This document shows, piece after piece, positions 10,499 to 27,266 of a stretch of DNA of 64,000 bases (position 1 is the stretch's first letter; every line of letters begins with the position of its first letter). The notes beneath the pieces were generated by a model. The model was not told the DNA's origin, did no database searches, and saw only the letters and a list, made by a program, of their open reading frames with translations. The stretch is from an uncultured delta proteobacterium (lineage in GTDB: Bacteria > Desulfobacterota > Desulfobulbia > Desulfobulbales > Desulfocapsaceae). The stretch spans positions 153,470 to 217,469 of the forward strand of contig CAWCTP010000012.1 of assembly GCA_963798425.1 (NCBI GenBank). The letters are read 5' to 3'. The position numbers and the translations under genes are program-made.

Positions 10499-10546
10499 AA
10501 AGAGAACTGGTAGCCCATATGCGTACGAGCATACTGCCTTGCAGAG

Positions 10547-10616: not shown

Positions 10617-11350
10617 GTGGCCTTGCTGGTACTTGTTGTCGGAATGTGGCCGATTGATAAAAACGCCCGCTTGAACGGCTGGTCTTTTATTGACATTGAA
10701 GGTGTCGATATTGGCAGCTATGTGGTTGAAGCACAGAAGGTCGTGGCGGAGGGGTCAAACTGCCGGCGGGGTATTCTCTCAACTGGTCGGGACAGTATGA
10801 GTACATGTTGCGGGCAAAAGAGAGACTGACCTATGTGGTTCCTCTGACGCTCACCATCATCATCATTTTACTGTATATGAATTTCCGAAATTTCGTGGAA
10901 GTTTCCATCATTATGGGCACCCTGCCCCTGGCGATGGTCGGCAGTATCTGGTTGATGTATCTTGGGGGATATAATTTCAGCGTTGCGGTGGGTGTCGGCT
11001 TTATAGCCCTTGCCGGAGTTACCGTTGAAATCGGTGTAATCATGCTCGTGTAACTTAATCAGTCCTATTACAAGATGCTCGCCGATACAAAGAATGAAGG
11101 CATTTCACCGGGCACAGAGGAATTATCTCTGGCCGTTCTGCATGGCGCCGGCATGCGTATACGGCCGATTATGATGACCGCTGCGGCAATCATCGCCGGA
11201 TTGCTGCCCATACTATTAGGCACCGGTACCGGTTCTGAGGTAATGAGCAGAATTGCTGCCCCAATGGTGGGTGGGATGGTCAGTTCTGTTGTGCTTACCT
11301 TACTGGTTCTTCCTGCGGTTTTCTTTTTGTGGCGTAAACGTTCGCTTTAG
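10617..11350 (+). pseudogene. decayed duplicate of the cusA 3' end (last ~250 codons)
   Basis: Three ORF fragments (10617..10829, 10805..11053, 11075..11350) align in order with the cusA C-terminus at roughly 65% identity ([20 protein letters not shown]…, MLRAKERL…, GTGTGSEVMSRIAAPMVGGM…). They carry one frameshift and one in-frame stop. No N-terminal 800 codons are present. Confidence 0.75.
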
Positions 11351-11357
11351 TACCTTA

Positions 11358-11391
11358 GAAAATCTTTCTCTGCTTTTTGAGAAAGATTTTC
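11358..11391 (+). terminator. perfect 13-bp stem hairpin after the cusA remnant
   Basis: gaaaatctttctc-tgcttttt-gagaaagattttc, 8 nt after the remnant's stop. Confidence 0.4.
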
Positions 11392-11405
11392 GTGAAGGTA
11401 CTTGT
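11379..11405 (+). repeat. left copy of an imperfect direct repeat (gAGAAAGAtTTTCGTGAAGGtACtTgT); the partner is at 27024..27049
   Basis: 22 of 26 core positions are identical between the two loci, with an extended similarity (ctttttgRg…) of about 35 nt. Each copy is followed by a short GC hairpin (cccgc…gcggg / ccccg…cgggg). Confidence 0.5.
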
Positions 11406-12365
11406 CCCGCGAATCTTTTGGGCGGGATTACCCCTTACTCCAGAATTTCTGTCACTCAGTTTAGTACCCCATTGAGGGGTGTAAAAAACAAAAAAGCTGC
11501 AACGTGTATTGAAATTATAAACTTGAATATACCTTATCCCGGTTTTCTTCCCGTTTGCCGGGGTTAGATATAAGGGGTAACACATAAGCAAAAATAAACC
11601 TGCCTACCTTGCAAACTTGGGTTAAATTGAAAGCATCAACCAACAACCCAGTGCCAAAATCAAGGAGGCAGGTCAAGGGAAAAAACAAATGTCACAAAAA
11701 CAGCTAATGCCTGAGAGATCGCAGGTTTATCCTGGGCAATAGCTCAGGCTCTTCCTAAAGAGCTATGGCTAAGCCATAGCAATAAAATTTTCATTTAACA
11801 ACTTAACCTTATAGGAGTGTTTAAAACCATTAACAGTGTTAACCATCTCAGTGCCTTAGGAATGAATTTTTGTTGGGAAAAGGCCGCAAAAACCCTTCCG
11901 GGCAACCACTACGTAATTCCACCTTCTTGAAAGCTGGCATTTGGCGACTGTGCCTTTTTCTTTAGGGTTCAATGCAGATTGTTCCAAATTGCCTTAAATT
12001 ATTTCTCTTTGTTATCTACCCACCCGACTTGATTCGAGAAAAATAAACATCTGGATTTGCCACGTTTCAAAGTTCCAGCCAACGCCACAAACTCGGTATT
12101 TTTCTTCAACCACTCAATAATTCAGTACTTCAAAGAATTGACAAAGCTTCTTTTGGAATTCCAAGATGCTGAAAACATAAGAAATGTCTTGACATAACGG
12201 TCAGAAAAGGCAATCACTGTCATGACAAAACGAAGCAGCGACATGTCAGAAGGTTAGATATCGTTTTATACATGAATTATGTCGGGGGAGTTGATGGCCG
12301 TGCTCGATTGCAACGTTTTTACTTAGACTTGCTTGCACCTGATATCTTGTCGTTTAAATTTCGGC

Positions 12366-12403
12366 TTTCTGTATAACACACATTTGTGAGTGTTATACAG
12401 AAA
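12366..12403 (+). promoter_or_regulatory. perfect 14-bp inverted repeat with 10-bp spacer (operator-like)
   Basis: tttctgtataacac-acatttgtga-gtgttatacagaaa. It ends 29 bp upstream of the ATG of ORF 12433. Confidence 0.45.
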
Positions 12404-12432
12404 CTGGTGATCCCCTTGTTAAATCTCTAAAA

Positions 12433-13227
12433 ATGAAACTTCATAAATTAACAGAAAGCTATAGGGTTAGACAAGAATCATACCTTTCAGAATTGAAGAA
12501 ATTTCCTTCGACTGAATTGAGAGTTAAAATTGAAATGAATCTATCAGTGTCAAACTTAGTGCTTGAAAATTTATTTAGTTTCTATGCTGCTTTGTCAGAA
12601 AATTTAGATGGGCTTCACAACAAAGGTCAAGAAATTGGGGAAAGGCTAAGATTAGTTATTGCTGAAAATTCTCCACACGAAATCAAGCGCAAAGTTGAAG
12701 AAATAAATCTTTCGAACAAAGCAGAAAAAGAGGAAGAATTACAAAGAATACTTTTACCAGTTAAGCTAGTTGAAAGATTAGGGGAACAAAATGCCTCAAT
12801 AAGTCAAATGCTTGATACTCTATTGAAATACCAAGAAGAATCTGAGAAACTAGTATTCAAAGTGTTTTCATTTAATAGAAAAGCAGAATTGAAAAATGGA
12901 TTGAAACTACTTTTTCGGTTTATTGCTACTCTAAATCCTTTTGTTTCGGGAGCAGATTCGATTTACCAATTAGTCAGGGAAAAGCAAATAAAATATTCAA
13001 CTGCAGATAAATGCATAAGAGAACTGAATGAATACTGGAATAATTGTTTTTCACTTGCTGTTACAGCGAAATATCTAGAAAAGGTTTTGTTAAGTTTTGT
13101 TAGATCACAATCTTCAGTATCAGTTGATGCAAAGAAATGTGTAGATGAAACCTACCAAAAACTTACGAGTCTGCAGACTGAATTTTATGAAGAAGTAATC
13201 AAGAAGATAAAAGAAATGAAAATTTAA
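12433..13227 (+). CDS. hypothetical protein (AT-rich orphan)
   Basis: 264-aa ORF of strongly AT-rich composition, in sharp contrast to the adjacent GC-rich cus genes. It is Lys/Glu-rich and helical, with no recognisable motif. A GC hairpin (gccgcg-aacag-cgcggc) follows it. Confidence 0.55.
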   Translation: MKLHKLTESYRVRQESYLSELKKFPSTELRVKIEMNLSVSNLVLENLFSFYAALSENLDGLHNKGQEIGERLRLVIAENSPHEIKRKVEEINLSNKAEKEEELQRILLPVKLVERLGEQNASISQMLDTLLKYQEESEKLVFKVFSFNRKAELKNGLKLLFRFIATLNPFVSGADSIYQLVREKQIKYSTADKCIRELNEYWNNCFSLAVTAKYLEKVLLSFVRSQSSVSVDAKKCVDETYQKLTSLQTEFYEEVIKKIKEMKI

Positions 13228-13299
13228 CAAATCGTTCCAGCGGAAGCCGCGAACAGCGCGGCTCCCGCTGAACTCCACGTTGAGCCTGTAGAAAAAGGT

Positions 13300-15100
13300 A
13301 TTTGGCCTTGTGAAATCAGAGAGTTATTGGTATATTTAGCTACATCAAATGGTAATCAACCGCTCAACTCTGCAGAAAGTCGGAAGCCATGGCCAAATAC
13401 AAGCCTTACTCCTACGCTCAAGGGCAGTTCATACCGGTATACTTCAACAAGCAGATCCAGAAAGGCACCTTCGAATACACACTCAACTATCTCATCGATC
13501 ATGAGCTTGATCTTGGAATTTTTGATAAGCGATTTCGTAACGATGAGACCGGTGCTCCTGCCTACGACCCCAGAATATTGCTAAAGATCATTCTTTTTGC
13601 CTATTCCCGCGGCATCACCTCAAGCCGTTCAATCGCCAGGTGTAGTGAGGAAAATGTGCTTTTCATGGCACTGTCGGCAAATAGCCGTCCCCACTTCACT
13701 ACCATTGCTGATTTCATATCGAGTATGGACAAAGCAGTGGTCAACCTCTTTCTCCAGATCCTTTTAGTCTGTGACCAGCAGAACCTTATTGGTAAGGAGA
13801 TGTTTGCCATCGATGGCTGCAAGCTGCCGAGTAATGCATCCAAGGAATGGAGTGGCACCAAGGAAGACCTGAAGCGTAAAGCGGAAAAGATGGAGAAGGC
13901 CCTGCACCGGATGATAATCCGTCACAAATGCATGGACGAGTCCAAGATTGAGCCGGAGGTGCAGGAAAGAGAAAAGAAGTACCAGGAAAAACTGAAGAAA
14001 AGTGCTGCCAAGATCAGGCAATGGCTTGGCGATAACGATGATCGTACAGGCAGCGGCGGCAAGGCGGTGAAATCGAATATCACCGACAACGAATCTGCGA
14101 AAATGGCGACGTCCAAAGGTGTGATCCAGGGATATGTTGGAGTTGCCTCGGTGGATAAGAAACACCAGGTGATTGTTGGCGCGGAAGCATATGGCCAGGG
14201 CCATGAAACCGATCTTCTGGTGCCTGCAGTGGAGACGATACAATCCAATCTTGCGAAAATCGGCGAATCGGATGCGTTGGATAATGCACAAATTGTGGCC
14301 GACAGTGGCTATCATTCCGAAAAGAATATGGAATATCTCTTTACGGAGAACATAGACGGCTATGTGGCGGACAAGCACTTTAGAAAAAGGGATCCCCGGT
14401 TTATCACCCAGGATAGATATAAAGATTTGCCAAGCTATTATGGCAGCACCAGGAATGGTAAGAAACGATTGTTCAGGCCGTCTGATTTTATCTTTGCCGA
14501 TGACTTGAGTCACGCCATCTGCCCGGCAGGTAAAAGGCTTTACCGTAGCGGCTCCCGTGCCAAGGTGAAAAACTATCTTGCCTACAAGTTCAAAGGAGCG
14601 AAACGGGATTGTCTTCCCTGCGAACTGCGTCGGGAGTGTCTCCGTCATCCAGAAAAAACCGAGATCCGCCAGCTTGCCTATTTAACAGGACGAAACCGCG
14701 CCGGCAAAGAACGATTCACTGAGAAGATGAAGCGCAAGATCGATACTGCTGTTGGCTGTGCGCTGTATGGCATGCGACTGGCTATTGGTGAGCCGCCCTT
14801 CGCGCATATACGCTCGGCAATAGGCCTGGATCGATTCAGCCTACGCGGCAAAAGGAAGGTTAACACGCAGTGGAATCTGTTCTGCATGGTCCATAACTTG
14901 AAGAAAGTGCATGCCTTTGGAACGATAGAGGTGTAAAAGCAGAGAGAAAAGTAGAAGAAGGCCGGAAATAAGCTGAAATGAAGCTCAGGAGAGCGCCAAT
15001 GACATAAGAAAAGGCAATTTATTGAATATTCGGTAAGTTTCAAGGTAACGCCTCAAATTTTGAAATTGAGAGGTAGTGGGAAACTCCGACTTTCAAAAAC
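13300..15100 (+). mobile_element. IS element (boundaries approximate)
   Basis: A single transposase gene flanked by short non-coding stretches. The terminal inverted repeats could not be defined by eye. Confidence 0.4.
13389..14936 (+). CDS. IS1182-family (IS5-like DDE) transposase
   Basis: 515 aa. The N-terminal DUF772-like block PAYDPRILLKIILFAYSRGITSSRSIARCSEENVLFMAL and the C-terminal DDE region match the IS1182/IS5 superfamily. A 294-aa antisense ORF overlaps it and is disregarded. Confidence 0.8.
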   Translation: MAKYKPYSYAQGQFIPVYFNKQIQKGTFEYTLNYLIDHELDLGIFDKRFRNDETGAPAYDPRILLKIILFAYSRGITSSRSIARCSEENVLFMALSANSRPHFTTIADFISSMDKAVVNLFLQILLVCDQQNLIGKEMFAIDGCKLPSNASKEWSGTKEDLKRKAEKMEKALHRMIIRHKCMDESKIEPEVQEREKKYQEKLKKSAAKIRQWLGDNDDRTGSGGKAVKSNITDNESAKMATSKGVIQGYVGVASVDKKHQVIVGAEAYGQGHETDLLVPAVETIQSNLAKIGESDALDNAQIVADSGYHSEKNMEYLFTENIDGYVADKHFRKRDPRFITQDRYKDLPSYYGSTRNGKKRLFRPSDFIFADDLSHAICPAGKRLYRSGSRAKVKNYLAYKFKGAKRDCLPCELRRECLRHPEKTEIRQLAYLTGRNRAGKERFTEKMKRKIDTAVGCALYGMRLAIGEPPFAHIRSAIGLDRFSLRGKRKVNTQWNLFCMVHNLKKVHAFGTIEV

Positions 15101-15152
15101 GGCTTTTTCTATAGACTCGTTATTAGGCATAAGAATCCGGGGGTGGCCGTAG

Positions 15153-16880
15153 ATGGCAAAGAAGAAAAAACTAAGCAATCCATTCTCCACCGGCGGTGGC
15201 GGCGTCCATTTTGAAGCGCATGTCCAAGCGTCCTTTGTCGCGCTGATGCTTACCGGCGGGCACGCTCCCTGTCTTCCCTGCTGGCCTATTGCGGAAATCA
15301 AACTTCAGGGCAAGATTGACGGCTTTGATACAGACGACCTTGTTGTTGTTGTAGAAAACGTGAACAGCAAGGAGCGGCGCAAACTTCTCGGGCAGGTCAA
15401 GCACACCATTGCCATCACGCAGGGCAGCACCCTATTTGGGGAGGTGATGCAGGCCGCCTGGAATGATTTCAAAAATCCTAAGGTGTTCACACGAGATAAG
15501 GATATTATTGCCCTGATCACAGGACCGCTCAGCGCAACCGATGCACACAACGTGCAATGGTTGCTAAACCAGGCGAGGCACACCAAAAACGTTGATGAGT
15601 TTTTCAGAAACGTCCATCAAGCGAATTTCAGCCCACCCAAGAGTGCCGAGAAACTGGAGGTCATTCAGCACCACCTAAAAGCAGCAAACGGTGGCAACGA
15701 CGTTTCAAGGGATGAACTCTATGACTTCCTTAACCACTTCCATCTGCTTGGTTACGATCTTGGTAACGAGTTCGGCGTTGTCCTGTCTCTGCTGCATTCC
15801 CACATTTCCCAATTCCAGCAGCATCAGCAGCAATGGGTCTGGTCACGGGTTGTCGATATTGTACAAACATGGAATCAAGATGCTGGTACGATCACGCCCG
15901 GCAAGTTGCCGGACGACCTTCTGGAAGCATTTAAGCAAAAGGCCGTGGCGGAAATGCCCGAGGAATTGAAGGCGGCACAGGAGAAACCTAAAACTGATTG
16001 GACTCAGCACCCTGACGCCACCTATCTGGCCTTGGCAGTTTTGATTGGCGCTTGGCAAGACAAAAGTCAATGCGACCTTGAGGCGATAACCCAACTGCTC
16101 GACATAAGTTATGACGAGTGGCTAAAGAAGGCGCGGGAAATATTACACTACCCTGACAGCCCGTTGGCTCTCAAAAACGGTATCTGGAAAGTTGTTAATC
16201 GAGCCGAGCTTTGGGGCCTGCTAGGATCGCGCATCCTTGATCAAAACCTTGATACTTTTAGGCCGCTTGCTGTTACCGTACTGAAGGAGCCAGACCCCGC
16301 TTTTGAACTGCCCGCCGAAGAGCGATACGCGGCAAGCATTCATGGCAAGGTGCTGAAATGTTCACATGTGTTGCGAAAAGGCATTGCCGAGGGTTTGGCC
16401 ATTCTGGGCAGCCAGCCAGAGTCGTGCCTTAACTGCTCGCAAGGGAAAGCTGAAGCAGCCTGCGCATTGGTAATACGTGAACTTCTGACCGATGCTGACT
16501 GGGTTTTGTGGGGCAGCCTGAACGGTTTGCTGCCCACTCTGGCCGAAGCCGCCCCGGGTGAATTTCTTGATGGTGTCGAAAAGACGATGCAGCTGACGCC
16601 CTGTCCTTTTGATGAGCTTTTCTCCCAGGAAGGCAACGGCATCACCGGCGGCAATTATTTAACCGGTCTACTCTGGGCGTTGGAAGGGCTGGCATGGGAT
16701 GAACAATATCTGGTTCGAGTCTGTGTTGCGCTTGGTGAACTTGCCAGTCATGACCCTGGCGGCCGGTGGGCCAATCGTCCATCCAATTCGCTTGCTACCA
16801 TTTTGCTGCCCTGGCTGCCACAGACGCTGGCATCTGTTGACAAACGCAAGGTGGCGGTGCGAACGATCCTTAATGAATGA
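15153..16880 (+). CDS. large hypothetical protein, N-terminal part (possible PD-(D/E)xK-like nuclease core)
   Basis: 575-aa ORF with no P-loop. It contains FDTDDLVVVVEN…GQVKH, a pattern compatible with a D-x(n)-E/QxK nuclease motif. It ends at TGA 16878-16880, but the same frame stays open into ORF 17046..18692. Confidence 0.55.
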   Translation: MAKKKKLSNPFSTGGGGVHFEAHVQASFVALMLTGGHAPCLPCWPIAEIKLQGKIDGFDTDDLVVVVENVNSKERRKLLGQVKHTIAITQGSTLFGEVMQAAWNDFKNPKVFTRDKDIIALITGPLSATDAHNVQWLLNQARHTKNVDEFFRNVHQANFSPPKSAEKLEVIQHHLKAANGGNDVSRDELYDFLNHFHLLGYDLGNEFGVVLSLLHSHISQFQQHQQQWVWSRVVDIVQTWNQDAGTITPGKLPDDLLEAFKQKAVAEMPEELKAAQEKPKTDWTQHPDATYLALAVLIGAWQDKSQCDLEAITQLLDISYDEWLKKAREILHYPDSPLALKNGIWKVVNRAELWGLLGSRILDQNLDTFRPLAVTVLKEPDPAFELPAEERYAASIHGKVLKCSHVLRKGIAEGLAILGSQPESCLNCSQGKAEAACALVIRELLTDADWVLWGSLNGLLPTLAEAAPGEFLDGVEKTMQLTPCPFDELFSQEGNGITGGNYLTGLLWALEGLAWDEQYLVRVCVALGELASHDPGGRWANRPSNSLATILLPWLPQTLASVDKRKVAVRTILNE

Positions 16881-18692
16881 CCGGATATCGCCTGGAATCT
16901 GATCATTCAGCTTCTTCCCGGTCAGCACCGGACCTCTTCTGGATCGCACAAACCAAGCTGGCGTAAGACCATCCCCGATGATTGGGAAAAAGGGATTACG
17001 CATCAGGAATACTGGCAGCAGGCATCTTTTTACGCGGAACTTGCGGTGGCTGCCGCAGGCCAAGATACTGTCCGGCTTTCCGCATTGATTGATCATTTTG
17101 ATAACCTACCTGAACCCGCTTTTAATCAACTTCTCCAGGTTCTTGCCTCCCAATCCATTTCAGAACTCTCCGAAGAACAACGACTTTCGATTTGGGACCA
17201 TCTCACGAAATTCACAAACAAACATCGGCGGTTCTCCGATGCGAAATGGTCATTGCCCGACGAACTGATTACCCGCATTGAACAAGTTGCCGAGCAACTC
17301 GCCCCCACCAGCCCGTTAAATTTATATCAGCACCTTTTTACAAATCGTGACTTTGATCTCTACGAAGAGAATGGCAATTGGGAAGAGCAGCGCAAGAAAC
17401 TCGAGACGCGACGTGAAACGGCCATTTTGGAAATCTTTCAGCAAGATGGCACTGAGGGTGTCATACGATTTGCCGAATCCGTTTCTTCACCAGGTCAGGT
17501 CGGGCATGCGCTTGGCATTATTGCCGATCCAGTCATTGAGCGAACCCTTTTGCCTCACTTCCTAGGTTCAGAAGACAACAGGCGCAGGGAATTGGTGAGC
17601 GGTTTTATCTGGCGGCGTTACTACCTAAAAGGCTGGGGGTGGTGCGACGACATCAATAAATCTGATTGGACTCCAGAGCAAGTAGCACAATTTCTGGCTT
17701 GTTTGCCGTTTACCAAGGAAACATGGGATCGCGCTTCTGAATGGCTCCAGGCCCACGAGAATGAATATTGGACCCGCACAGGCGCTAATGCCTATCAGGC
17801 CAATGGTGATCTTGCCATTGCCATTGAGAAACTGATTGAACATGGCAGACCACACGCGGCAATCAACTGCCTAGACAGGATGCGCCATGACAAGCAGCCA
17901 ATCGATAGTAATCAATGTGTTCGAGCGTTGCTCGCAGCACTTTCCTCCAGTGAGCCCAGCTACGCCATGGACGGGTACCACATCGTCGAACTGATCACGT
18001 TTCTTCAGGCAGAGCCTTCGGTTAGCCAAGACGACCTCTTTAGAGTCGAGTGGGCATATGTTCCCTTGCTCGACCGTCATAGAGGTGCCGCGCCCCAACT
18101 CCTTGAAAGCAGACTGGCCAATGACCCCGAGTTCTTTTGCGAGGTAATTCGACTGATCTACCGTTCCCAGAAAGAAGATCAGCCGTCGAGAGAACCCACC
18201 GAGGAATCAAAGGCAATCGCAACAAATGCCTGGCAATTGCTACATGAGTGGAAAACACCGCCTGGAACACAAAAAGATGGAACGTTCAGCGAAGAGCGCT
18301 TTACTGAATGGCTCCAAAGGGTAAAGGAAGTCTGTACGGAATCCGGCCACCTGGAAGTTGCACTCATCAATATTGGCGAAGTATTGATTCACACCCCACC
18401 CGATCCAGGCGACTTATGGATACGCCGCGCTGTCGCTGCCGCATTGAATGACCGCGAAGCTGATGACATGCGCGCCGGTTTCAGGACGGGGACATACAAC
18501 TCACGCGGTGTTCATTGGGTTGACCCAACCGGAAATCCGGAGAGAGAACTGGCTGAGCAGTTCCGGAGCAAAGCCGAGGAAATAGAGAACGCTGGGTTTC
18601 AGCGATTTGCAGTTACCTTGAGAGGTTTGGCGGACAGCTACGACCGCGAAGCTGAACGGATAATTAACGATAACAAAGACCGGGAAGATTAG
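16881..18692 (+). CDS. large hypothetical alpha-helical protein, C-terminal part (in-frame continuation of 15153..16880)
   Basis: The frame is continuous from 16881 with protein-like, Trp-rich translation (PDIAWNLIIQLLPGQH…). The first ATG is at 17046. The combined reading frame is about 1180 aa. Confidence 0.5.
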   Translation, partial: PDIAWNLIIQLLPGQHRTSSGSHKPSWRKTIPDDWEKGITHQEYWQQASFYAELAVAAAGQDTVRLSALIDHFDNLPEPAFNQLLQVLASQSISELSEEQRLSIWDHLTKFTNKHRRFSDAKWSLPDELITRIEQVAEQLAPTSPLNLYQHLFTNRDFDLYEENGNWEEQRKKLETRRETAILEIFQQDGTEGVIRFAESVSSPGQVGHALGIIADPVIERTLLPHFLGSEDNRRRELVSGFIWRRYYLKGWGWCDDINKSDWTPEQVAQFLACLPFTKETWDRASEWLQAHENEYWTRTGANAYQANGDLAIAIEKLIEHGRPHAAINCLDRMRHDKQPIDSNQCVRALLAALSSSEPSYAMDGYHIVELITFLQAEPSVSQDDLFRVEWAYVPLLDRHRGAAPQLLESRLANDPEFFCEVIRLIYRSQKEDQPSREPTEESKAIATNAWQLLHEWKTPPGTQKDGTFSEERFTEWLQRVKEVCTESGHLEVALINIGEVLIHTPPDPGDLWIRRAVAAALNDREADDMRAGFRTGTYNSRGVHWVDPTGNPERELAEQFRSKAEEIENAGFQRFAVTLRGLADSYDREAERIINDNKDRED

Positions 18693-18803
18693 TAATCTCA
18701 ATGCCTAACAACCGTATCAACTCAGACTGTCAATTCCGCTGCTCTCCATTACCAGCCGGTTATGCGGAGCGTTGGCCGTAGAAAGAATACTGGAGATATC
18801 GAA

Positions 18804-19223
18804 ATGAATGTTAAACCACATGATAGATTCAGCGCGGAATATTCTCTAACGCCGAAGAAGGTTGCCGATTATGCACTTTCAGTAGGTGATAAAAATCCAA
18901 TCCACCATGATCCTAATTTTGCGGCCAAAACACGATATGGCCGTCTAATAGCAAGTGGAACTCATACGACAGCTTTGATTCTTGGATTAACTGCATCTCA
19001 CTTTTCAAAAAAGACTTCGATGGTTGGACTTGATTATTGGGTCGGCTTTCAGCGTCCGATCTATGCAAATGAGACTATCAAATTGGAATGGCTAGTGGTC
19101 CGAGTGACTCCAAATAAAAAATTGAAAGGTAGTATCGTTGAACTCCGCGGACGAATTTTAGGACAGGATGGTAAAACGTCACTTGGTGCCAAAGGACGTT
19201 TGTTAATCACTGACAAATTATAA
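18804..19223 (+). CDS. MaoC-like (R)-hydratase hotdog-fold protein
   Basis: GGAGAT RBS before MNVKPHD. Contains the motif DKNPIHHDPNFAAKTRYGRLIASGTHT, typical of MaoC dehydratase. Confidence 0.75.
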   Translation: MNVKPHDRFSAEYSLTPKKVADYALSVGDKNPIHHDPNFAAKTRYGRLIASGTHTTALILGLTASHFSKKTSMVGLDYWVGFQRPIYANETIKLEWLVVRVTPNKKLKGSIVELRGRILGQDGKTSLGAKGRLLITDKL

Positions 19224-19447
19224 TGAATCAGAATTTTGCCAACCAGTCGTTTTGAGAATCGACGCGCAAAAAGCGCGTGTCTCAACTCCATGGTGGGGTG
19301 CCGATTATGAACTGGCAATTGAGAAGACGGGAAGTTAATTTATAACTGATAGAGGAAATAGATATCCATGCGTTTCAACTCAACCCCACGCAAAAAGACC
19401 GCCGACACACCACATCCTCAGAAGCTTGCTTTGAGGCACATGTCATT

Positions 19448-19740
19448 GGGGTCGGACCACGTTAAGTGTATGAATTAATTGTGTAATACCGGAAAGAAGT
19501 GGTAGTTTGCATTCTTGCAATGCCCTTTTGGGTGGAGAATAGGTAGCTTTAAGGAAAGTGTTTGTGGAAAATAGGGGACGTAGGAAATAGGGGACGTCCT
19601 TAAAAAATAAAATTAGTTGTCCTTTACTTTAGGGCTTGCCGGAGTAAACAGGAAATCATTCCAAGAATAGCCAGACTTGATAGCCCCCCGTGCCCCCCCC
19701 TTTTTGATCTCCCCATGGTTGTTGTTAAGGTCCGACCCCA
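19448..19740 (+). repeat. 12-bp inverted repeats (tggggtcggacc / ggtccgacccca) flanking a 270-bp segment with tandem 17-nt repeats and a C8 tract
   Basis: Arms lie at 19447-19458 and 19729-19740. Inside are ggaaaataggggacgta-ggaaataggggacgtcc (19566-19599), a C6 tract (19684-19689) and a C8 tract (19693-19700). Confidence 0.35.
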
Positions 19741-19825
19741 TTTGGATTTGGCTTCCATTCTCATTTGGCTTTGCGATCAATTTTTACGAAGGACAACACT
19801 GCTATACTACTTATCGGTTGCAATT

Positions 19826-19986
19826 TTTTCCTGTTTACAGGGAAAATAGATGAAATTCAGATCGGTTTGCTGTTCTTGAGGATTGTTTAGTTGTTTTTAC
19901 TCGTTTACAGGGAAAAAATGTTGACTATTGAATCTTGATTGCTATCATTTGAACATAACAGTTTATTTTCCCGTTAAACAGGGAGG
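19826..19986 (+). promoter_or_regulatory. hipB promoter region with three operator-like repeats spaced 70 bp apart
   Basis: TTTTCC-tgtttacag-GGAAAA is a perfect palindrome at 19826-19846. Related copies lie at 19896-19916 and 19966-19986; the last overlaps the RBS. A sigma70-like TTGACT-16-TATCAT lies at 19921-19948, and a GGGAGGAGG RBS sits before ATG 19991. Confidence 0.45.
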
Positions 19987-19990
19987 AGGC

Positions 19991-20242
19991 ATGGAGAGAC
20001 AGCTAGCACACATTATTAGATTTCACAGAAAACGCAGTGGATTGACTCAGCTTGAGCTCGCTGAAATGGCTGGTGTCGGGAAAAATCTGATTTATGAAGT
20101 CGAAAATGGCAAACTAAGTTTGCGCCTGGATAACTTACTGAAGGTTCTCCAGGTTCTAAATATCGATCTCAACTTTCAAAGTCCCCTTCGTGAGAGTTTT
20201 TTGAAGGAGTATCCTAATGCGGATAGCGGATGTGTTTTTTAA
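19991..20242 (+). CDS. hipB: HipB-like XRE-family HTH antitoxin/repressor
   Basis: MERQLAHIIRFHRKRSGLTQLELAEMAGVGKNLIYEVENG is a Cro/C1-type HTH. It is the first gene of a three-gene operon with overlapping starts and stops. Confidence 0.8.
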   Translation: MERQLAHIIRFHRKRSGLTQLELAEMAGVGKNLIYEVENGKLSLRLDNLLKVLQVLNIDLNFQSPLRESFLKEYPNADSGCVF

Positions 20243-20546
20243 AAATATTACGGCCGGACAGCTTACCCAGATGGATGAAGACGGGAAGTATTGTTTTCGT
20301 TATGCTCTGAACTACGCTGGCCCCCCGATTTCGGCGACAATGCCGGTACGGAGTGAGGCCTATCTATTTGATAGTTTCCCTCCTTTTTTTGACGGCTTAC
20401 TGCCGGAGGGATTTCAACTCGAAGCTCTTTTGCGCCAAAGAAAACTCGATCGGAACGACAGATTCGGGCAGCTACTTCAGGTTGGAGCTGATACCGTCGG
20501 TGCGGTAACAGTGAGTGAACATCTATTGGAAGAAAGGTGCAAATGA
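20217..20546 (+). CDS. hipS: HipS-like protein (HipA N-terminal subdomain as a separate polypeptide)
   Basis: 109 aa resembling HipA N-terminal subdomain 1. AAGGAG RBS upstream. Overlaps hipB by 26 bp and hipT by 10 bp. Confidence 0.75.
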   Translation: MRIADVFFKNITAGQLTQMDEDGKYCFRYALNYAGPPISATMPVRSEAYLFDSFPPFFDGLLPEGFQLEALLRQRKLDRNDRFGQLLQVGADTVGAVTVSEHLLEERCK

Positions 20547-21469
20547 ATCGATGTCCTCTCACCTATCAGCCCTGTGTCGGCGCATACTCCGAACAAGGTT
20601 TGAAACTTCTCTCCCGGCGCCTGATAGGACTAAAAGATTTACCGTTCACCGCCGAGGAGTTACGCCGGGAGGCAGCTGCTCGCTCTGAGAAAATGTCCAT
20701 CCAAGGTGTCCAGCCCAAATTGTCGGCAAAACTGAACATTAAAGAACAACAATTTGATTTTGTTGACAGGAGCGGTCTTTATATTCTCAAACCTCAAACT
20801 GCAGACTATCTGGAGGTGCCGGAGAATGAAGATCTCAGCATGCGATTTGCACGTGTAGCGGGCATTGAGGTGCCCCTGCATGGTCTGCTTTATGGACGGG
20901 ATCGACAGTTGAGTTATTTCATTCGCCGTTTTGACAGAGTCGGCCGTAACGACAAGGTTCATGTTGAGGATTTTGCTCAACTTGCCGGACTCTCACGTGA
21001 TACAAAATATCGATCCAGCATGGAACAAGTGGCAGGTTTGATAGACAGATACTGTACCTTTCCGGCTGTCGAGAGACTCAAATTATTTCGTCTGATTTTG
21101 TTCTGTTTTCTGATTGGCAATGAAGATATGCATCTGAAAAATTTTTCTATTATATACAGAGATGACGTTATAGGGCTGTCTCCGGCCTATGACCTCTTGA
21201 ATACAACCATCGCCTTGCCTCATCCAGAGGAAGAACTCGCCCTGCCGTTAAATGGTAAAAAGAACAAGCTGAAACGACAGGATTTGGTTGATTATTTCGG
21301 ACGGAATCGATTGCAGTTGACAAACCGGGTGATTGATAAGGTAATGCTGGAATTGAAGCAGGCACGTACGACTTGGGAACAATTACTAGCTGTTAGTTTC
21401 CTGTCAGAGCAAATGAAAGAGAAATATCTCAGTGTGCTGGAAGATCGATTTTTAAGACTGTATGGATAG
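20537..21469 (+). CDS. hipT: HipT-like Ser/Thr kinase toxin (HipA C-terminal kinase core lacking N-subdomain)
   Basis: Contains GVQPK and the catalytic GNEDMHLKNFS motifs of HipA-family kinases. The length (310 aa) and gene order match the HipBST tripartite type. Confidence 0.8.
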   Translation: MQMNRCPLTYQPCVGAYSEQGLKLLSRRLIGLKDLPFTAEELRREAAARSEKMSIQGVQPKLSAKLNIKEQQFDFVDRSGLYILKPQTADYLEVPENEDLSMRFARVAGIEVPLHGLLYGRDRQLSYFIRRFDRVGRNDKVHVEDFAQLAGLSRDTKYRSSMEQVAGLIDRYCTFPAVERLKLFRLILFCFLIGNEDMHLKNFSIIYRDDVIGLSPAYDLLNTTIALPHPEEELALPLNGKKNKLKRQDLVDYFGRNRLQLTNRVIDKVMLELKQARTTWEQLLAVSFLSEQMKEKYLSVLEDRFLRLYG

Positions 21470-21568
21470 GCGCACTACGATCAACCAAGACGAAGTTGAT
21501 TTTTAACCATTTATTATTTATCGCGGCAATTGGTGCCTGCCGTGTCAAGAATAAAGATTTGCTCCCTC

Positions 21569-22390
21569 TTATTTACTTCCCAGTAGATACACCTCCGTAA
21601 ATGTCGGATCAATATTATGATAAGACTCCAGCAAGACTAGAAATTTGCCACGTACTCGCGGGTATTTGTTCATGATTTTTTTGAACTTCTGCGGGTAGGT
21701 GAAGATCATGGCAGCGTATTCGTTGATATCGTTTTCGACGCTGGTTTGCGCGTATGTATCCATAAAGCCTTTTTCAAAATCGACCTCTGTCCCACCTAAA
21801 TGCGAGACGCTCTTGTATGTCTTTAGTGGATCCTTGGTTGTGTTGTATAAGTAGTCAAATTCCTTTGGATTATTTGCAGTCCAGAGATTGGTGTCAAATG
21901 AATTACGTTGCAACAAAAGGGAACTGAACTCATGATGAAAAGCGTATATACCATCATCATGAGCTTGGAATCCACTATCAATCAAATATATGCTCCTTTT
22001 CAAAGGATCATATAATGCTCCATAGTTAAACCCATTTTTTTTAGTGATTCTCCCAGCAAAATTAATAGTAGATAAATGGTTTTTGATTACTTGAACCGGA
22101 TACCTCTCTAATGCCGTTTGCAAGATATCAGCATAGCGAACTAGCACCCTAGGCCAAATCGGTTTGATGATGGGCGATTCTTCCCAAGCTGATAAAAAAT
22201 CCGCGTCAACCTTGTAGACAATCTTGATCCCATATTTGGATGTAATTGGTTCAAAACAAGCGTCAATTTCCTCTTTGGTATAGGTCGTATGAAGATAGAT
22301 GAAATACAATTTACCGCCGACAGCGAGCACCAGCAGAATTGCTAATAAATAGTTTACTACCTTGTTCATCGGTCTATATTTGATCATATC
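21569..22390 (-). CDS. hypothetical membrane-anchored protein (AT-rich)
   Basis: About 274-aa ORF with an N-terminal TM (VVNYLLAILLVLAVGG) and a soluble domain. Overlaps the end of the upstream LysM gene. The start codon is uncertain. Confidence 0.5.
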   Translation of the reverse strand, partial: DMIKYRPMNKVVNYLLAILLVLAVGGKLYFIYLHTTYTKEEIDACFEPITSKYGIKIVYKVDADFLSAWEESPIIKPIWPRVLVRYADILQTALERYPVQVIKNHLSTINFAGRITKKNGFNYGALYDPLKRSIYLIDSGFQAHDDGIYAFHHEFSSLLLQRNSFDTNLWTANNPKEFDYLYNTTKDPLKTYKSVSHLGGTEVDFEKGFMDTYAQTSVENDINEYAAMIFTYPQKFKKIMNKYPRVRGKFLVLLESYHNIDPTFTEVYLLGSK

Positions 22391-23360
22391 ACGCATCTGG
22401 ATATTCATGACGTTTTGGGTCAACGGAGTGTTTGAAAGACATAATTGAGGTCATTTCTCCTGGTCTAAATGTTGCTATGCGAATTGCTGGGAAAAAACGT
22501 GCGATAACCGTGATCGCTACCAAAGCGAAAATCGCAGTTAGATAGTCGTCCGTTTTGGTCACATCTACCGAGGTGGTTGGATCTAAAGCTCTAACATCCA
22601 CCGCCGCATTATCCCGAACCGGTGCTTTATTCACTCCCTTGGATCTTGGATGCATGATCACCTCAACTTTGAGCTCGATATCGGCGCTGAATTTGTATTT
22701 TACTCCCCTAACTTCCAAGGTGCCGTTGAGAGTTTGAGGCTTAATGAAGCCCGCCCAATGGATAGGGCTATCCTTCTGAACTTTTACCGTAAAGGGGCCA
22801 AGATTGGCCTCGGTCGCTAGAGGTGCCTTGATTTTGACTATGCCGGACTCGAACACCATCTCAGGTTTGGCCGTCAGGGCAGACAGGGCCGGGTCGTATG
22901 TCTTGTATAATTTTTGCTTGGCCTGTATGGGGTCTTTGCTTATGAGCAGTTCAAAGCCGTGTTGGCGCATGTTGTCGGACATGGTTTCGATGCTGATCTT
23001 GCCGCTTAACTCGGTTTTGACCGTGAAGTCAAGATAAGGACGGACGTATTTGATTTGTGGCGTGTCATGGCCGATTGAGTAGGTAACTTTCAGATCGAGT
23101 GGAATTGCTGATTTTCCACCTTCAACTTTGACGCCGGTTCCTGGTTGCAGATTTATTTTGCGTGCCGGCAGTACAATCGTCTGTCCCACATAAATCAGAT
23201 TTTCATTTACAATGGGAATCAGTGGGCGTTGCTGATGTTGCTTTGCGGCCTCTTTATTGTGTTCGTTGAAAATATCTGGCCATCTGGTGCCGCTACCCAA
23301 ATATTGGTAGGCCAAGCTCCATAGACTGTCTCCCTTTTTAACCAAATGATACAAAGGCAT
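22389..23360 (-). CDS. LysM domain protein
   Basis: The N-terminal LysM motif YHLVKKGDSLWSLAYQYLGSGTRWPDIFNEHN…GQTIVLP is followed by a beta-rich domain. The gene is AT-rich. Confidence 0.65.
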   Translation of the reverse strand: MPLYHLVKKGDSLWSLAYQYLGSGTRWPDIFNEHNKEAAKQHQQRPLIPIVNENLIYVGQTIVLPARKINLQPGTGVKVEGGKSAIPLDLKVTYSIGHDTPQIKYVRPYLDFTVKTELSGKISIETMSDNMRQHGFELLISKDPIQAKQKLYKTYDPALSALTAKPEMVFESGIVKIKAPLATEANLGPFTVKVQKDSPIHWAGFIKPQTLNGTLEVRGVKYKFSADIELKVEVIMHPRSKGVNKAPVRDNAAVDVRALDPTTSVDVTKTDDYLTAIFALVAITVIARFFPAIRIATFRPGEMTSIMSFKHSVDPKRHEYPDA

Positions 23361-24508
23361 TTTGCCTCCTTTTTAAGTTGTAACCCAACGGTGATTTAAT
23401 GTTTGGCTTTTTTATCTTTGACACTTTGCCAGCGTTATGACGACGTTCCTGCGTATCTAGATGGAATCTTGTTGCCAGGAGATCCTTTAGTCAAATGGGT
23501 CGCAGACTACTTATCCGTGTTGGATTTCACAACTTTTCCCTCCGTATAAAATTTTCTATTTCAACCCTGCCTTGGTAAGGGTTGACTGTAATCTTATATG
23601 CAAAATGTCCCAAGAAGCCAATTTTGCATAAGGTCATATACCTCCTGAATTTGAATTGTCCTCGCAGCAGAAGACTGTTTGGAAAAACTATCTTCAAGCC
23701 ATGAACACCAATAATGGGTCAAGCAAAGAGTAAACGTTCACCAGCAACCCATATGCTTGCGATGAACCCCCCTTGCATAGGAACGTTGTGTTTTTTCTCT
23801 ATCTGCTTTCTGATGCTCGACTCTTCTTCCAGATCCCTTTTTCCAAGGAGGGCCTTTATCTCTTCAACAAACCCGACACATCCTCTTGTATTCATGGAGT
23901 TGTGATAGCTTTGATATCTTATATTTTTCTTACATTTTTAAGGTTGATAGAGAAAAACGAGCTTGCTGGGGACGTCACATATCACGCTTTTGGATATTCT
24001 TGGAGTTTGGGGTCAATGAAATGCTCGAAAGACATAACCGAGGCTGTCGTTCTTGGTTGAAGTTGTATTTTACTCCACCGACCTCCACGGTGCCATTGAG
24101 AGTGGCAGACTTAATGGTGCCGGACATATGGTTGGGGCTCTCTTCACCTAATTGCCTTCTTTTAGGTCTTGATGAGGCCTCCCGCTTTGCTGAAGTTAGG
24201 GTGGTGATTGATGAGAAAATGGTTTCTTATCACAATCTTTCTCGGTCGCCAATCTTCCCAGTCCGAAACACCTGTGATATTAAATTCCCTTATGATTTCA
24301 TGAAGATTTGTAAACTCTGACAATTGCCACTTCATTTTCGAGATCGGGAGTTCTGAACCTGAAGTTCGGTTTGCACCGCATTGAGTTTCCGGGCACCTGT
24401 GTCTTTCGACAAGTATTTGGTGGCTGTTTATAATTGGAATGATTATCATAAATAGGGTAATGTAACATTGAAGTAAATACTTAAACACTCTACGGAATTC
24501 ACTCTGTT

Positions 24509-26782
24509 ATGGCTATAGAAAACATCGAAGCCAAAATTAAAGGTATGCATTGTGCGGCATGTTCCTCGCGCATTGAACGTGTGGTCGGTAACATGGAAGG
24601 GGTTACCGAATGTTCTGTGAATTTGGCTACAGAACGGGCTAAAATTGCATATGATCCAGTAGCAATTACCATCACCGCAATCGAACAGGCTATAGCCGGT
24701 CTGGGTTTTTCAGCTGAGGTTGCAACGGATGATTCAGACGATTCCGGTGATGCCCGAGAAGCGGCTGACCGCTTGGAGGCGATGAAGAATAGCCTGCTTC
24801 CAGCATTTGTCCTGGCATTGGCTATCATGTGTCTGTCAATGTCGGGAATGGTTGGAGTCACACTGCCGGAAATCGTACACCCCAATCATTCACCCTTCAC
24901 CTACGCGATAATCCAGTTTCTACTCCTTTTGCCAGTTCTCTATCTCGGCAGAAATTTTTATCTGAATGGCATTCCGGCACTTCTGCGTGGAGGGCCGAAC
25001 ATGGATAGTTTAATTGCTATGGGTACCGGCGCCGCTTTCATCTACTCCACCTGGAATCTGATTGAAATTGGACTTGGGATCAATCCTGTCGCTCGTGCCC
25101 ATGATCTCTATTTTGAATCGGCAGCCATGTTGATTGCTTTGGTTTCCTTGGGAAAATATCTGGAGGCCCGGTCAAAGTCCAGAACCACAGATGCTATAAA
25201 GCAACTGATGCAGCTTGCTCCTGAGACTGCCACGCTGCTCGACGGTAACGAACAGCGCCAGGTGGCGGTGTCTGAGATACAGATAAGTGATCGCATCCTG
25301 ATCCGACCTGGAGAAAGAATCCCGGTTGATGGGAAAATAACCGATGGGGAATCCGCAGTTGACGAATCAATGCTTACCGGTGAGAGCATGCCGGTGTTGA
25401 AAAGAAAGGGTGATGATCTTTTTGGTGGCACGTTGAACAAAAACGGCGCCTTGACCATGGAAGCGAAAAAAGTCGGACGTGATACAATGCTGGCCCGAAT
25501 TGTGAAACTTGTACAGGACGCACAAGGGACGAAGGCGCCGATAGCCAATCTTGCCGATCGTGTCAGCTTCTATTTTGTGCCAACCGTAATAGTAATTGCA
25601 TCGCTGGCAGGTTTGAGCTGGTTTTTCATTGGTGGTGCAGAGTTTAGTTTTGCTCTGCGTATTTTTATAGCTGTTTTGGTGATCGCTTGTCCTTGTGCCA
25701 TGGGTCTGGCCACGCCAACTTCTATCATGGTCGGAACTGGCCGTGGTGCACAGCTGGGGGTCCTGGTAAAAAGCGGAGCAATACTTGAGCTGGCCCAGAA
25801 GGTGAGTTGTGTGGTTTTTGATAAAACCGGCACGCTTACCCGCGGTAGACCTGAGGTCACCGATATTCGTCCTTTTTCCGATTATGATGAAAAAATGCTT
25901 TTGAGTCTTTCTGCCGGGGCGGAGAGTCACTCGGAGCATCCTCTAGCTGAAGCGATTATTACAGCAGCACGAAAAAGTGATTGTTCTATTCCCGAACCAC
26001 AATCTTTTTCGGCAACACTTGGTCGGGGTATTACATCGTCTCTACTGTTGGATGGTAATAACTATGAGGTACTCTTTGGCAACATCGAATTTCTCCGGGA
26101 AAATCACATTGAGGGTCTAACCGAGCAGGTTCAGAGGGAGGCAAGTGCGTTGTCTGATCAGGGGAAGACCGTTTTGTATCTCGCGGTTGGTAAAGCTTTG
26201 GCCGGTCTACTGGCCATTGCCGATCAATTGAAAGATGAGGCGAGGGATACAGTGAAACATCTTGAGGCGATGGGGATTAAAGTCGTGATGCTTACCGGGG
26301 ATAATGAGAAAACAGCAACCGCAATTGCTCGTGAGGCAGGGATAAAACGGGTTGTCGCCGATGTTCTGCCGGACAAGAAAGAAGAGGAAGTTGTTAGATT
26401 ACAGCAGGAAGGTGAGATCGTTGCCATGATCGGGGATGGAATCAATGATGCACCTGCACTGGCAAGGGCTGATGTCGGCATTGCCATGGGTACAGGAATT
26501 GATGTTGCTATGGAGTCGGCCGATATAGTTTTGATGACCGGCCATCTGTCCGGGGTCGGTCGGGCTATTGGCCTTAGTCGGGCGACCATGAGGAATATTC
26601 ACCAGAATCTTTTCTGGGCCTTTGCTTATAATGTGATAGGGATCCCTGTGGCGGCTGGAATCTTGGCCATCTTTGGTGGGCCAACCCTTAATCCGATGAT
26701 TGGCGGTGCTGCCATGGCACTTAGTTCTGTTTCCGTCGTTACTAATGCTCTGCGTCTCAGGTGGTATCAACCTGAAGTCTAG
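24509..26782 (+). CDS. copA: copper-translocating P1B-type ATPase CopA
   Basis: N-terminal HMA ([12 protein letters not shown]). TM motif [11 protein letters not shown] (CPC). DKTGTLT phosphorylation site. [10 protein letters not shown] hinge. 757 aa. Confidence 0.9.
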
Positions 26783-26834
26783 TAAGACCTGGCTTTAATG
26801 GTCTAAAAAAAATGATTTGGTTAAAAATGTTGTC

Positions 26835-26978
26835 TTAGAATTTTTTTTTGGTTCCGTACGTAGAATAGTTGAATTCCAGTAATTTCTTGAAAATATTTAT
26901 CAGGAAATCGTACCAGGCGGGCTGCTCTATTTCTGGATTCATTTCTTTGACCAGCTTGTTGGTATCTTCTACTGCCAT
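26835..26978 (-). CDS. possible small protein (47 aa)
   Basis: Reverse-strand ORF MAVEDTNKLVKEMNPEIEQPAWYDFLINIFKKLLEFNYSTYGTKKKF preceded by GAGGAGAGAC. It is below the 60-aa ORF-track threshold. The call is speculative. Confidence 0.2.
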   Translation of the reverse strand: MAVEDTNKLVKEMNPEIEQPAWYDFLINIFKKLLEFNYSTYGTKKKF

Positions 26979-27023
26979 TTAGTCTCTCCTCTTAGTGACT
27001 TAGGAAGTCTTTACCCGTTTTTG

Positions 27024-27049
27024 GGGAAAGAATTTCGTGAAGGAACGTA
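27024..27049 (+). repeat. right copy of the imperfect direct repeat (gGAAAGAaTTTCGTGAAGGaACgTaT)
   Basis: See the feature at 11379-11405. It lies about 240 nt downstream of the copA stop and 220 nt upstream of the flavodoxin gene. Confidence 0.5.
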
Positions 27050-27266
27050 TACCCATCAAGGGGGCATGAAACAGAGTCCCCGCACGTTACGGGGCAGAGT
27101 GAACTAGAAAGTATTTCCTTTACGAGTGCGACCCAGTATAATTACAATCGTTATATCTCACAAGCGTTTCTTTTCGTGAATTAACGGGGAGATTTAGATG
27201 TGGAGGATACGGTTATATCCCACTCACATTGAGCCCTAATCCGGACAACAGATAAATGAGAGTTCT

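Follow-up and report, generated by a model that had tools for sequence, protein, structure and literature searches.

Modular palindromic repeats beside a copper-efflux locus in an uncultured Desulfocapsaceae bacterium

The cus-copA region and its repeats

The DNA considered here, hereafter the window, is a 64,000-nt (64-kb) stretch of contig CAWCTP010000012.1 (assembly GCA_963798425.1) from an uncultured delta proteobacterium of the Desulfocapsaceae. It carries a cus copper-efflux operon, an accessory segment, copA, an open reading frame (ORF) of 47 amino acids (aa), a Fer4 gene, a 134-aa ORF and an RluA-type gene. An earlier inspection of the letters, referred to below as the sequence-only reading, had taken two imperfect direct repeats, at 11379-11405 and 27024-27049, as attachment (att)-like ends of a ~15.6-kb island that would include copA. 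Both repeats are real, and they are two of the three copies found in the window of a multi-copy family of short modular palindromes, which is the subject of the present analysis.

The motif GAAAGAWTTTCGTGAAGGWAC occurs at 11381-11401 and 27026-27046, both on the plus strand, and these are its sole occurrences in the window with 3 mismatches allowed, for a chance expectation of 0.01. A repeat finder extended the similarity to 62 nt at 76% identity (11347-11408 vs. 26992-27053), which is longer than first noted, and each direct repeat corresponds to one arm and the loop of a ~56-nt palindrome, designated module H. Short GC hairpins, designated G modules, follow each repeat as previously described, at 11407-11427 for the left one and at 27052-27064 and 27078-27094 for the right one. 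A third copy, inverted and lying outside the proposed segment, is complementary to copy 2 over 55 nt (82%). With an H profile built from many copies, nhmmer recovered three sites only in the window, namely copies 1, 2 and 3, and all modules of the family are restricted to three places: 11347-11563 (H, G1, a partial arm with G3, and G5), 26992-27094 (H, G3 and a G2-like module) and 28068-28123 (H). Their individual coordinates are given in Table 1.

The remnant of the native cusA 3' end adjoins the left repeat, as had been noticed, and its TAG stop codon (11348-11350) lies inside copy 1, for which the predicted fold is an interrupted stem of 21 bp (-31.8/-32.9 kcal/mol, z about -8). Copy 2 is located in the 5' untranslated region of the conserved 47-aa ORF (26835-26978, minus strand), immediately 5' of its ribosome-binding site (RBS), and copy 3 occupies the 68-nt spacer between the stop codon of the Fer4 gene (28065-28067) and the RBS and GTG (28136) of the 134-aa ORF.

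The closest relative found, locus L033, displays ~86% nucleotide identity to the window, and its Fer4 protein (78% aa identity) is the closest homologue with context. Its gene order is cusC, cusB, cusF, cusA, a 240-nt spacer, copA, the 47-aa ORF (minus strand), Fer4, the 134-aa ORF and the RluA-type gene (minus strand). This locus is devoid of the island and yet contains module H at all three orthologous sites, i.e. downstream of the cusA stop and of Fer4 and upstream of the 47-aa ORF. The sequence-only reading had pictured an empty site in which cusCBA directly precedes the flavodoxin/Fer4 gene; no such arrangement was found in the relatives examined, and the empty site reads cusCBFA, copA, 47-aa ORF, Fer4.

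In four other relatives, L034 to L037, copA, the 47-aa ORF (67 aa in L036), Fer4 and the RluA-type gene also stay together, with an ORF of 127-134 aa after Fer4 in three of them (none was called in L036), and the genes upstream of copA differ in each. Because the block made of copA, the 47-aa ORF, Fer4, the 134-aa ORF and the RluA-type gene is kept in all five relatives examined, copA is considered as part of the core and not as island cargo, contrary to what had been proposed; two relatives have 127 and 124 aa for the 134-aa ORF. The repeats of L034-L037 are variably present, absent, halved or associated with a different G module. The copy 2 site, between the 47-aa ORF and Fer4, is filled in the window, L033, L037 and (in a diverged form) L036, is empty in L034 and holds a single arm in L035. 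As for the copy 3 site, between Fer4 and the 134-aa ORF, it is filled in the window and L033 only, with a G2 module in the latter, and the element is absent from L034, L035 and L037. At the cusA stop, the window and L033 have the element and L041 (Desulfopila sp. IMCC35006) lacks it. Judging from these alignments, the repeats do not bound the island and appear to predate it.

No integrase was found among the ORFs of the 11-24 kb and 32-44 kb regions, screened with Pfam and NCBIfam, where only an IS1182-family DDE transposase (IS, insertion sequence) was detected, and ARAGORN found no transfer RNA (tRNA) or transfer-messenger RNA gene in the 64-kb window. With repeats at the same three sites of an island-free relative and no integrase in the screened ORFs, the notion of att-like ends did not hold.

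Architecture, distribution and placement of the family

Module H is an AT-rich hairpin of ~56 nt, composed of TTAGTRMCTTAGAAATTCTTTCYC, an 8-nt loop and GRGAAAGAATTTC(GTG)AAGGWACTTAT. It is mostly fused, via a conserved ATAAGTWCCTTCAC junction, to a short GC hairpin lying upstream, of which at least five variants exist (G1-G5, 13-26 nt); H itself, with its 56 nt, behaves like an inverted doublet. The elements measure 56-85 nt, and the G+H units are found single, in tandem, nested or in mixed-orientation clusters. Locus L009 thus contains two perfect tandem 85-nt G4+H units, and L002 four tandem 47-nt G1 units followed by H, while copy 1 of the window forms with the extra modules at 11443-11563 a mixed-orientation cluster reminiscent of the bacterial interspersed mosaic elements (BIMEs). 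Compared to its window orthologue, the H loop of L033 (6920-6982) contains an extra block of ~52 nt made of two nested G3-like hairpins, and this difference between genomes that are ~86% identical indicates that modules probably turn over on a short evolutionary timescale.

The solo H of L001 has two perfectly complementary 24-nt arms (TTAGTACCTTAGAAATTCTTTCCC and its complement), which constitute terminal inverted repeats. Across 37 distinct copies, the inner 13-bp helix of H is 91.7% paired, with double-sided changes at 4 pairs, and the H ends read T-TA-G...C-TA-A, which is compatible with insertion at TA. Searching the whole window against Rfam 15 yielded nothing at gathering thresholds; copy 1 gave a microRNA-hairpin hit only (27.5 vs. 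a threshold of 86 bits), obtained in an E-value search of 11300-11620 and considered spurious. A role as intrinsic terminator was also rejected, given that no T tract follows the hairpins and that no terminator-like site is present in 11000-12500. H is AT-rich, then comes GTCCCGCG, and the lone site passing a loose terminator scan was the G2-like hairpin (27094-27078, minus strand).

The distribution of the family was analysed with a strict pattern, the indel-free 45 nt common to all three copies (GAAAWTCTTTCYC-N20-CTAAGKYACTAA), in a set of one genome per species (185,579 species). It was found at 32 loci in 8 genomes, all Desulfobulbales, with at least 13 loci in CAVSJK01. These genomes belong to Desulfopila sp. 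IMCC35006, a member of the Desulfocapsaceae, to a Desulforhopalus metagenome-assembled genome (MAG), and to MAGs named "delta proteobacterium" or Desulfobulbales. The two checks by which the sequence-only reading could be refuted, the frequency of the motif and the comparison with relatives, both went against it: the motif is dispersed, with these 32 loci in 8 genomes, and an island-free relative has the repeats at the same three sites. Nor is the repeat specific to the island ends, as would be expected of att sites, a third copy lying at 28068-28123. A phage origin of the motif was discarded, the strict pattern being absent from 2.9 million viral contigs. None of the 32 motif loci is syntenic with the window around 4-30 kb, and the comparisons of gene order rest on protein-anchored loci instead.

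With the core profile, nhmmer detected 58 distinct sites in the 32 motif-selected loci and the window, and ~8 sites in ~210 kb of loci chosen by protein, not by motif. The density of ~1 repeat per 20-26 kb, observed in the window and in the protein-anchored loci, suggests by extrapolation the order of at least 100 copies per genome.

The 58 sites are mostly intergenic, with five falling inside a crudely called ORF, 35 between same-direction, 11 between convergent and 3 between divergent ORFs. A particular association with stop codons was observed. When H is read on the strand giving the terminus TTAGTRMCTTAG, an ORF of at least 100 codons stops at the TAG of TTAGTRMC (positions 2-4) in 18 of the 53 H termini, two of these 18 belonging to orthologous pairs, whereas the other in-element TAG, in a different frame, serves as a stop in just two termini. 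The cusA remnant of the window, with 98 open codons, is a further case beyond the 18. In the window copies 2 and 3, and in L003, L006 and L018, an RBS follows this same H end at a distance of 0-25 nt.

For cusA, filled and empty versions of the stop codon could be compared. The element-filled end of the window and L033 reads ...K-R-S-L-TAG|TACCTTAG... (TAG|TACC), vs. ...K-R-S-L-TAA for the element-free end in L041 and in a cusA relic of L038 (see below). The protein end is the same, the third base of the stop codon now being the G of the element (TAA to TA plus G). This pair fits an insertion at TA; as a single case, it is no proof of a target rule.

The accessory insert and the imported cusA segment

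The accessory segment downstream of cusA, described in the sequence-only reading, is indeed missing from L033, with limits that differ from those first drawn. It spans ~11431-24403 (~13 kb), positions 7030/7035 of L033 corresponding to 11430/24404 of the window, so that its right end is 2.6 kb short of the right repeat. On the left, the last base common to the window and L033 is at ~11430-11435; the edge, at most 5 nt from where G1 ends on its outer side, is separated from the left repeat by ~30 nt, and the insert opens with 130 nt made up of additional modules of this repeat family. Neither a duplication nor a terminal direct or inverted repeat was found at the insert ends in the junction alignment.

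The insert combines an ORF-free stretch rich in AT with an orphan ORF, an IS1182-family element, an interrupted large ORF, MaoC, HipBST (HipB/HipS/HipT) and a peptidase/LysM pair. The gene content listed previously, with copA next to these genes, was right, and so was the compositional mosaic, the GC content ranging from 34% to 54% across 11.5-24.5 kb. This cargo looks horizontally mobile and partly decayed. The terminal inverted repeats of the IS1182-family element (GAGCCTGTAGAAAAAG) are unrelated to the H arms, and the element was rejected on this ground as the parent of H; it had no match in the plasmid collection.

Table 1. Coordinates of the repeat modules, of the neighbouring features and of the blastn matches between the window and L033
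Feature	Position in window	Strand or orientation	Remarks
Copy 1, module H	11347..11405	-	Plus strand reads TTAGTACCTTAGAAAATCTTTCTC-loop-GAGAAAGATTTTCGTGAAGGTACTTGT; nhmmer 59.8 bits; orthologous site filled in L033
Module G1, joined to copy 1	11400..11430	-	Short GC hairpin TAATCCCGCCCAAAAGATTCGCGGGACAAGT; aligns to L033 6983-7030
Partial H right arm + G3	11443-11486	+	Left edge of insert
G5	11532-11563	-	Left edge of insert
Copy 2, module H	26992..27050	-	Degraded hairpin; nhmmer 57.2 bits; fold z = 0.4
G3-like module, joined to copy 2	27045-27076	-	
G2-like GC hairpin, joined to copy 2	27078-27094	-	
Copy 3, module H alone	28068..28123	+	nhmmer 43.3 bits; fold z = -3.2/-4.4
Import (3' two-thirds of cusA and the next 56 nt)	7980..10554	+	Matches L038 10665-13239
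Native cusA 3' end, decayed remnant	10660..11350	+	Aligned to L033 at 85%; frameshift and internal stop
Orphan ORF	12433-13227		
IS1182-family element	13282..15118	+	16-nt terminal inverted repeats, GTT on both flanks; transposase 13389-14936
Large ORF	15153-18692		~1180 codons; one in-frame TGA at 16878-16880
Truncated, decayed duplicate of peptidase/LysM junction	~23978-24142		Right end of insert
copA	24509..26782	+	Conserved upstream region 24404-24508; syntenic in five relatives
blastn match, cusC to cusA	3597-10137		L033 36-6604
blastn match, native cusA 3' end	10660-11378		L033 6208-6926
blastn match, H right arm + G1	11380-11430		L033 6983-7030
blastn match, copA + upstream region	24404-26782		L033 7035-9413
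blastn match, 47-aa ORF to RluA-type gene	26834-29503		L033 9594-12307

The large ORF had no match in Pfam, NCBIfam or PADLOC. Its first 575 codons have homologues that are 48-92% identical across very different phyla; homologues of ~1000 aa were seen in Deltaproteobacteria, Gammaproteobacteria, Cyanobacteria, Bacteroidetes, Ignavibacteria and a Methanosarcinaceae MAG. A selenocysteine reading of the in-frame TGA was rejected, for a Trp is found at this position in the 92%-identical stretch of the intact homologue P0243, and the gene is inactivated by a TGG-to-TGA nonsense mutation. In L040, the homologue of the large ORF follows an Abi_alpha gene, to which the orphan ORF of the window is not homologous. 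The large ORF may be an uncharacterised defence-type gene; PADLOC gave no defence-system assignment for the ORFs of the island. Concerning the peptidase-like gene, a 199-nt 3' stretch (21559-21757) was 87% identical to L034 15578-15776, at a different variable spot, which suggests that relics of this gene family move around these genomes.

The cusA gene itself has a composite origin. From 3716 to ~7950, the window is L033-like, mostly at 86-96% identity with dips to 72-81% at the 5' end. From ~8000 to 10554, in contrast, the sliding identity is 97-100% to L038 (Desulforhopalus MAG OY781976) and 64-87% to L033, whereas elsewhere the cus operon reaches just 72-87% identity to L038. The intact cusA ORF (1060 aa) is 98% aa identical to the OY781976 protein (P0122), vs. 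just 68% for the Fer4 orthologue of OY781976. Downstream, the native 3' end is split into ORFs at 10617-10829, 10805-11053 and 11075-11350, matching positions 945-1019 of the Pfam domain ACR_tran. An import of ~2.5 kb has, therefore, displaced the native cusA 3' end and left a 690-nt frameshifted relic, in a very recent inter-lineage recombination in a copper-efflux gene. In L038, too, a relic was found: 77 nt from an older cusA 3' end follow its stop codon.

The left crossover of the import is homologous and located inside cusA; its right end is illegitimate. Since the insert and the cusA import each have one homologous and one non-homologous end, both may be read as homology-facilitated illegitimate recombination. 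A single event for the cusA patch and the 13-kb insert, e.g. a Campbell-type integration via cusA homology, was rejected because the native remnant and copy 1 lie between them.

Several other features of the locus were recorded. CusB and CusF are fused in one 527-aa ORF (5720-7303) in the window, as in L038, L039, L041 and L042, vs. two overlapping genes in L033. The 47-aa ORF has a strong RBS and is found at the same place, divergent from Fer4, in four of the five relatives; a promoter-like sequence, TTGTGA-17-TATACT (27163-27135, minus strand), is highly conserved upstream of it. No family match was obtained for this ORF, which probably encodes a real small protein. Two Band_7/SPFH genes (29503-32912) are present in the window and in L034-L036 and missing from L033, which points to a deletion in L033. 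A second variable region (36068-44095), absent from L033 and L034, contains a sigma-54 activator, four ORFs without Pfam hits, a C39 peptidase-domain protein and an outer-membrane beta-barrel protein, and no integrase.

Nature of the repeats

Among the known systems, repetitive extragenic palindromic (REP) sequences, together with BIMEs and REP doublets forming hairpins (REPINs), are the closest in behaviour. As described in PMC2817692, PMC3116915 and PMC3733652, these are short imperfect palindromes, REPINs being moved by REP-associated tyrosine transposases (RAYTs), and an unpaired GTAG or CGTC tag at one end of the palindrome defines the two REP super-families (PMC3733652). REPs measure 20-40 bp, usually exceed 100 copies per genome and can flank an associated RAYT gene. 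Like them, the present repeats are short imperfect palindromes with many copies in a narrow clade. They likewise occupy extragenic sites, for the most part behind genes and in spacers that separate same-direction or convergent ORFs, as PMC3733652 has it for REPs, and are arranged as singles, inverted pairs giving a longer hairpin, or mosaic clusters, probably transcribed as RNA hairpins. The differences concern the tag, GTAG/CGTC being absent from H and G, whose conserved flanks are TTAGTRMC on H and GGGATAAGT on G; the size, H being an AT-rich element of ~56 nt with 24-bp arms vs. 20-40 bp for REPs; and the arrays, which are mostly direct tandems (L002, L009) vs. the regularly alternating orientations of REPs. 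Membership is not claimed, the defining tag being absent.

A miniature inverted-repeat transposable element (MITE) offers another comparison. The Correia/NEMIS MITEs of Neisseria have a TA target duplication and terminal inverted repeats, and are co-transcribed as hairpins. Common traits are the perfect terminal inverted repeats (solo H of L001), the small size without coding capacity, the presence/absence polymorphism at orthologous sites, the TA-compatible ends and the transcribed spacers, whereas MITEs do not typically show a modular build like that of G+H or tandem arrays like those of G. In the ~0.36 Mb of loci scanned, no pair of H termini spaced by more than ~56 nt, as expected for a parent IS with H ends, was found.

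The BOX elements of Streptococcus pneumoniae are modular interspersed repeats with a variable number of internal modules (PMC3049150). They resemble the present family in their modularity, restriction to few related species, extensive secondary structure, likely effect on co-transcribed genes and slow turnover among strains; they come from an unrelated host phylum, and the modules found here are themselves hairpins, the likeness being one of description and not of sequence comparison with BOX, RUP or SPRITE. Frequent stop-codon overlap is not known to have been described for BOX. As for integrase att sites, they share with the repeats the presence of two same-orientation imperfect repeats around accessory genes; here, both are present at the empty site and multi-copy, without an integrase in the screened ORFs or a tRNA target in the window, and the right one lies 2.6 kb past the junction. 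The family belongs to the small interspersed palindromic repeats and is apparently undescribed, our literature searches having found no paper on a Desulfobulbaceae/Desulfopila repeat family of this type.

In all likelihood, these repeats constitute a modular palindromic intergenic family of the Desulfocapsaceae (Desulfopila, Desulforhopalus and related MAGs) that is dispersed in the genomes and does not mark att sites or island ends. They would belong to the mobile (non-autonomous) or recombinogenic elements, of the REP/BIME, REPIN or MITE kind, and we hold with moderate confidence that they spread, or have spread, non-autonomously or through recombination among copies and persist where they are neutral. 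They would be tolerated at harmless positions, behind stop codons and within untranslated leaders; where the element sits on a stop codon, its TTAG would provide a TAG and leave the protein unchanged. With lower confidence, insertion would take place at the TA of stop codons and the transcribed stem would alter termination, initiation or mRNA decay: as a strong hairpin on a stop codon or beside an RBS, it could affect mRNA stability or translation. For the locus, the ancestral order would be cusCBFA, H+G1, copA, 47-aa ORF, G+H, Fer4, H and 134-aa ORF; ~13 kb of horizontally mobile cargo would have entered at the outer edge of the H+G1 cluster, and in a separate event a foreign ~2.5-kb cusA 3' segment recombined into cusA. 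The existence of a multi-copy family, its orthologous copies at the empty site, the junction positions and the import are documented directly.

Several observations weigh against this explanation. No transposase, RAYT or parent IS with matching ends turned up, in an analysis that included no genome-scale RAYT search and no screen of the fetched loci for Y1 transposases, and, as no mobilising enzyme was found, the only grounds for mobility are the copy number, the variable presence at orthologous sites, the nesting and the tandem arrays. A clean target-site duplication was not readable, the filled/empty comparison being limited to one stop-codon pair whose distal flank is not comparable. The copy number of the source organism is an extrapolation, its own genome being outside the scan. 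About half of the copies have two outer-stem mismatches (GTTCC/GTCAC subfamily) and copy 2 folds like shuffled sequence, so that a structural role would not be uniform. The boundary of the insert depends on one close relative, L033, the others differing upstream of copA. Finally, the orthologous copies kept across species and the compensatory changes of the inner stem would equally fit a function selected by the host.

Such a function, either as a cis-acting RNA hairpin that stabilises mRNA or modulates the termination or initiation of translation, or as a palindrome bound by a global DNA-binding protein, kept by selection at each site, is nonetheless improbable. Besides those compensatory double changes, orthologous copies are conserved between species (L011/L019, L010/L029 and window/L033/L037), the placement on stop codons or just 5' of an RBS is stereotyped, and copy 2 is probably transcribed, as it is found downstream of the conserved promoter-like site. 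On the other hand, the neighbouring genes are functionally unrelated, presence varies among close relatives with unchanged flanking genes, and the tandem units, loop nesting and G swapping at one orthologous site are typical of repeat elements and not of operators or riboswitch-like leaders; moreover, there is no Rfam match and no terminator-type T tract. The sequence-only reading had kept in reserve a conserved regulatory or small RNA element; it came closer to the truth in pointing to a sequence element other than att, which is best read as a dispersed repeat family.

The island reading itself, in which a ~15.6-kb element including copA integrated between cusCBA and the flavodoxin/Fer4 gene and created or used att-like direct repeats, deserves next to no credit. 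It could draw on same-orientation copies flanking a mosaic region with an IS, a toxin-antitoxin system and orphan genes, but a third, inverted copy lies outside, the motif is dispersed with many copies per genome, both copies already exist in the island-free L033, the homology breaks on the right at 24403 and not at 27049, copA is a syntenic core gene in five relatives, and the screened ORFs and the window are devoid of integrase and tRNA genes, respectively. A metagenome-assembly artefact, where reads from different Desulfocapsaceae populations would have been joined into the chimeric cusA, the duplicated 3' end and the insert, is very unlikely too. The nearest relatives are all MAGs, and a 2.5-kb stretch is 97-100% identical to the MAG of another sample, with flanks at ~75-85%; however, the import has native-type sequence on both sides, the chimeric cusA forms an intact ORF, full-length by comparison with Pfam, the source contig measures 573 kb, and a chimeric join does not explain a decayed native remnant with a frameshift and a stop.

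Another possibility, compatible with the dispersed family and less likely than not, is that the repeats served as dispersed homology, DNA from a related donor with the same repeat family being anchored by homologous recombination in the H/G cluster behind cusA and joined illegitimately at its other end. The left junction within 5 nt of the G1 end, the same-family modules in other orientations in the first 130 nt of the insert, the right junction without homology or duplication, the same one-sided pattern of the neighbouring cusA import and the differences upstream of copA in every relative would all agree with such an anchor. Against it, no donor with the island beside such a repeat was found, the extra modules could stem from a local expansion of the cluster, and the insert, itself a mosaic with an IS and an internal duplicated fragment, may have been built up in several steps. 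It is rather unlikely, finally, that H represents a new miniature mobile element preferring the TA of TAA/TAG stop codons, with its G regenerating TAG, and moved by some Desulfocapsaceae transposase. If so, a stop codon inside a 21-24-bp stem would give the host, or the element, a handle on translation termination and mRNA decay; according to Liang, Rudd and Deutscher (Mol Cell 2015), REP hairpins near stop codons reportedly lower expression via ribosome stalling.

Taken together, the locus displays an ordinary REP/BIME- or MITE-like repeat family beside a recombination hot spot. There is nothing conceptually new in it, and the one feature that might merit more work is the frequent use of the TAG of the element as a host stop codon. 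From a practical point of view, before short repeats on either side of accessory DNA are labelled as att sites, their multiplicity in the whole genome should be checked; here, this check shifts the right boundary of the island by 2.6 kb and puts copA back into the core genome. The family could serve as a typing or annotation marker for the Desulfocapsaceae and, given its stop-codon overlap and RBS proximity, is a candidate modulator of gene expression. The cusA-copA spacer appears as a local recombination hot spot in a copper-resistance neighbourhood, and the import found in cusA bears on the diversification of metal-resistance loci in sediment sulfate reducers.

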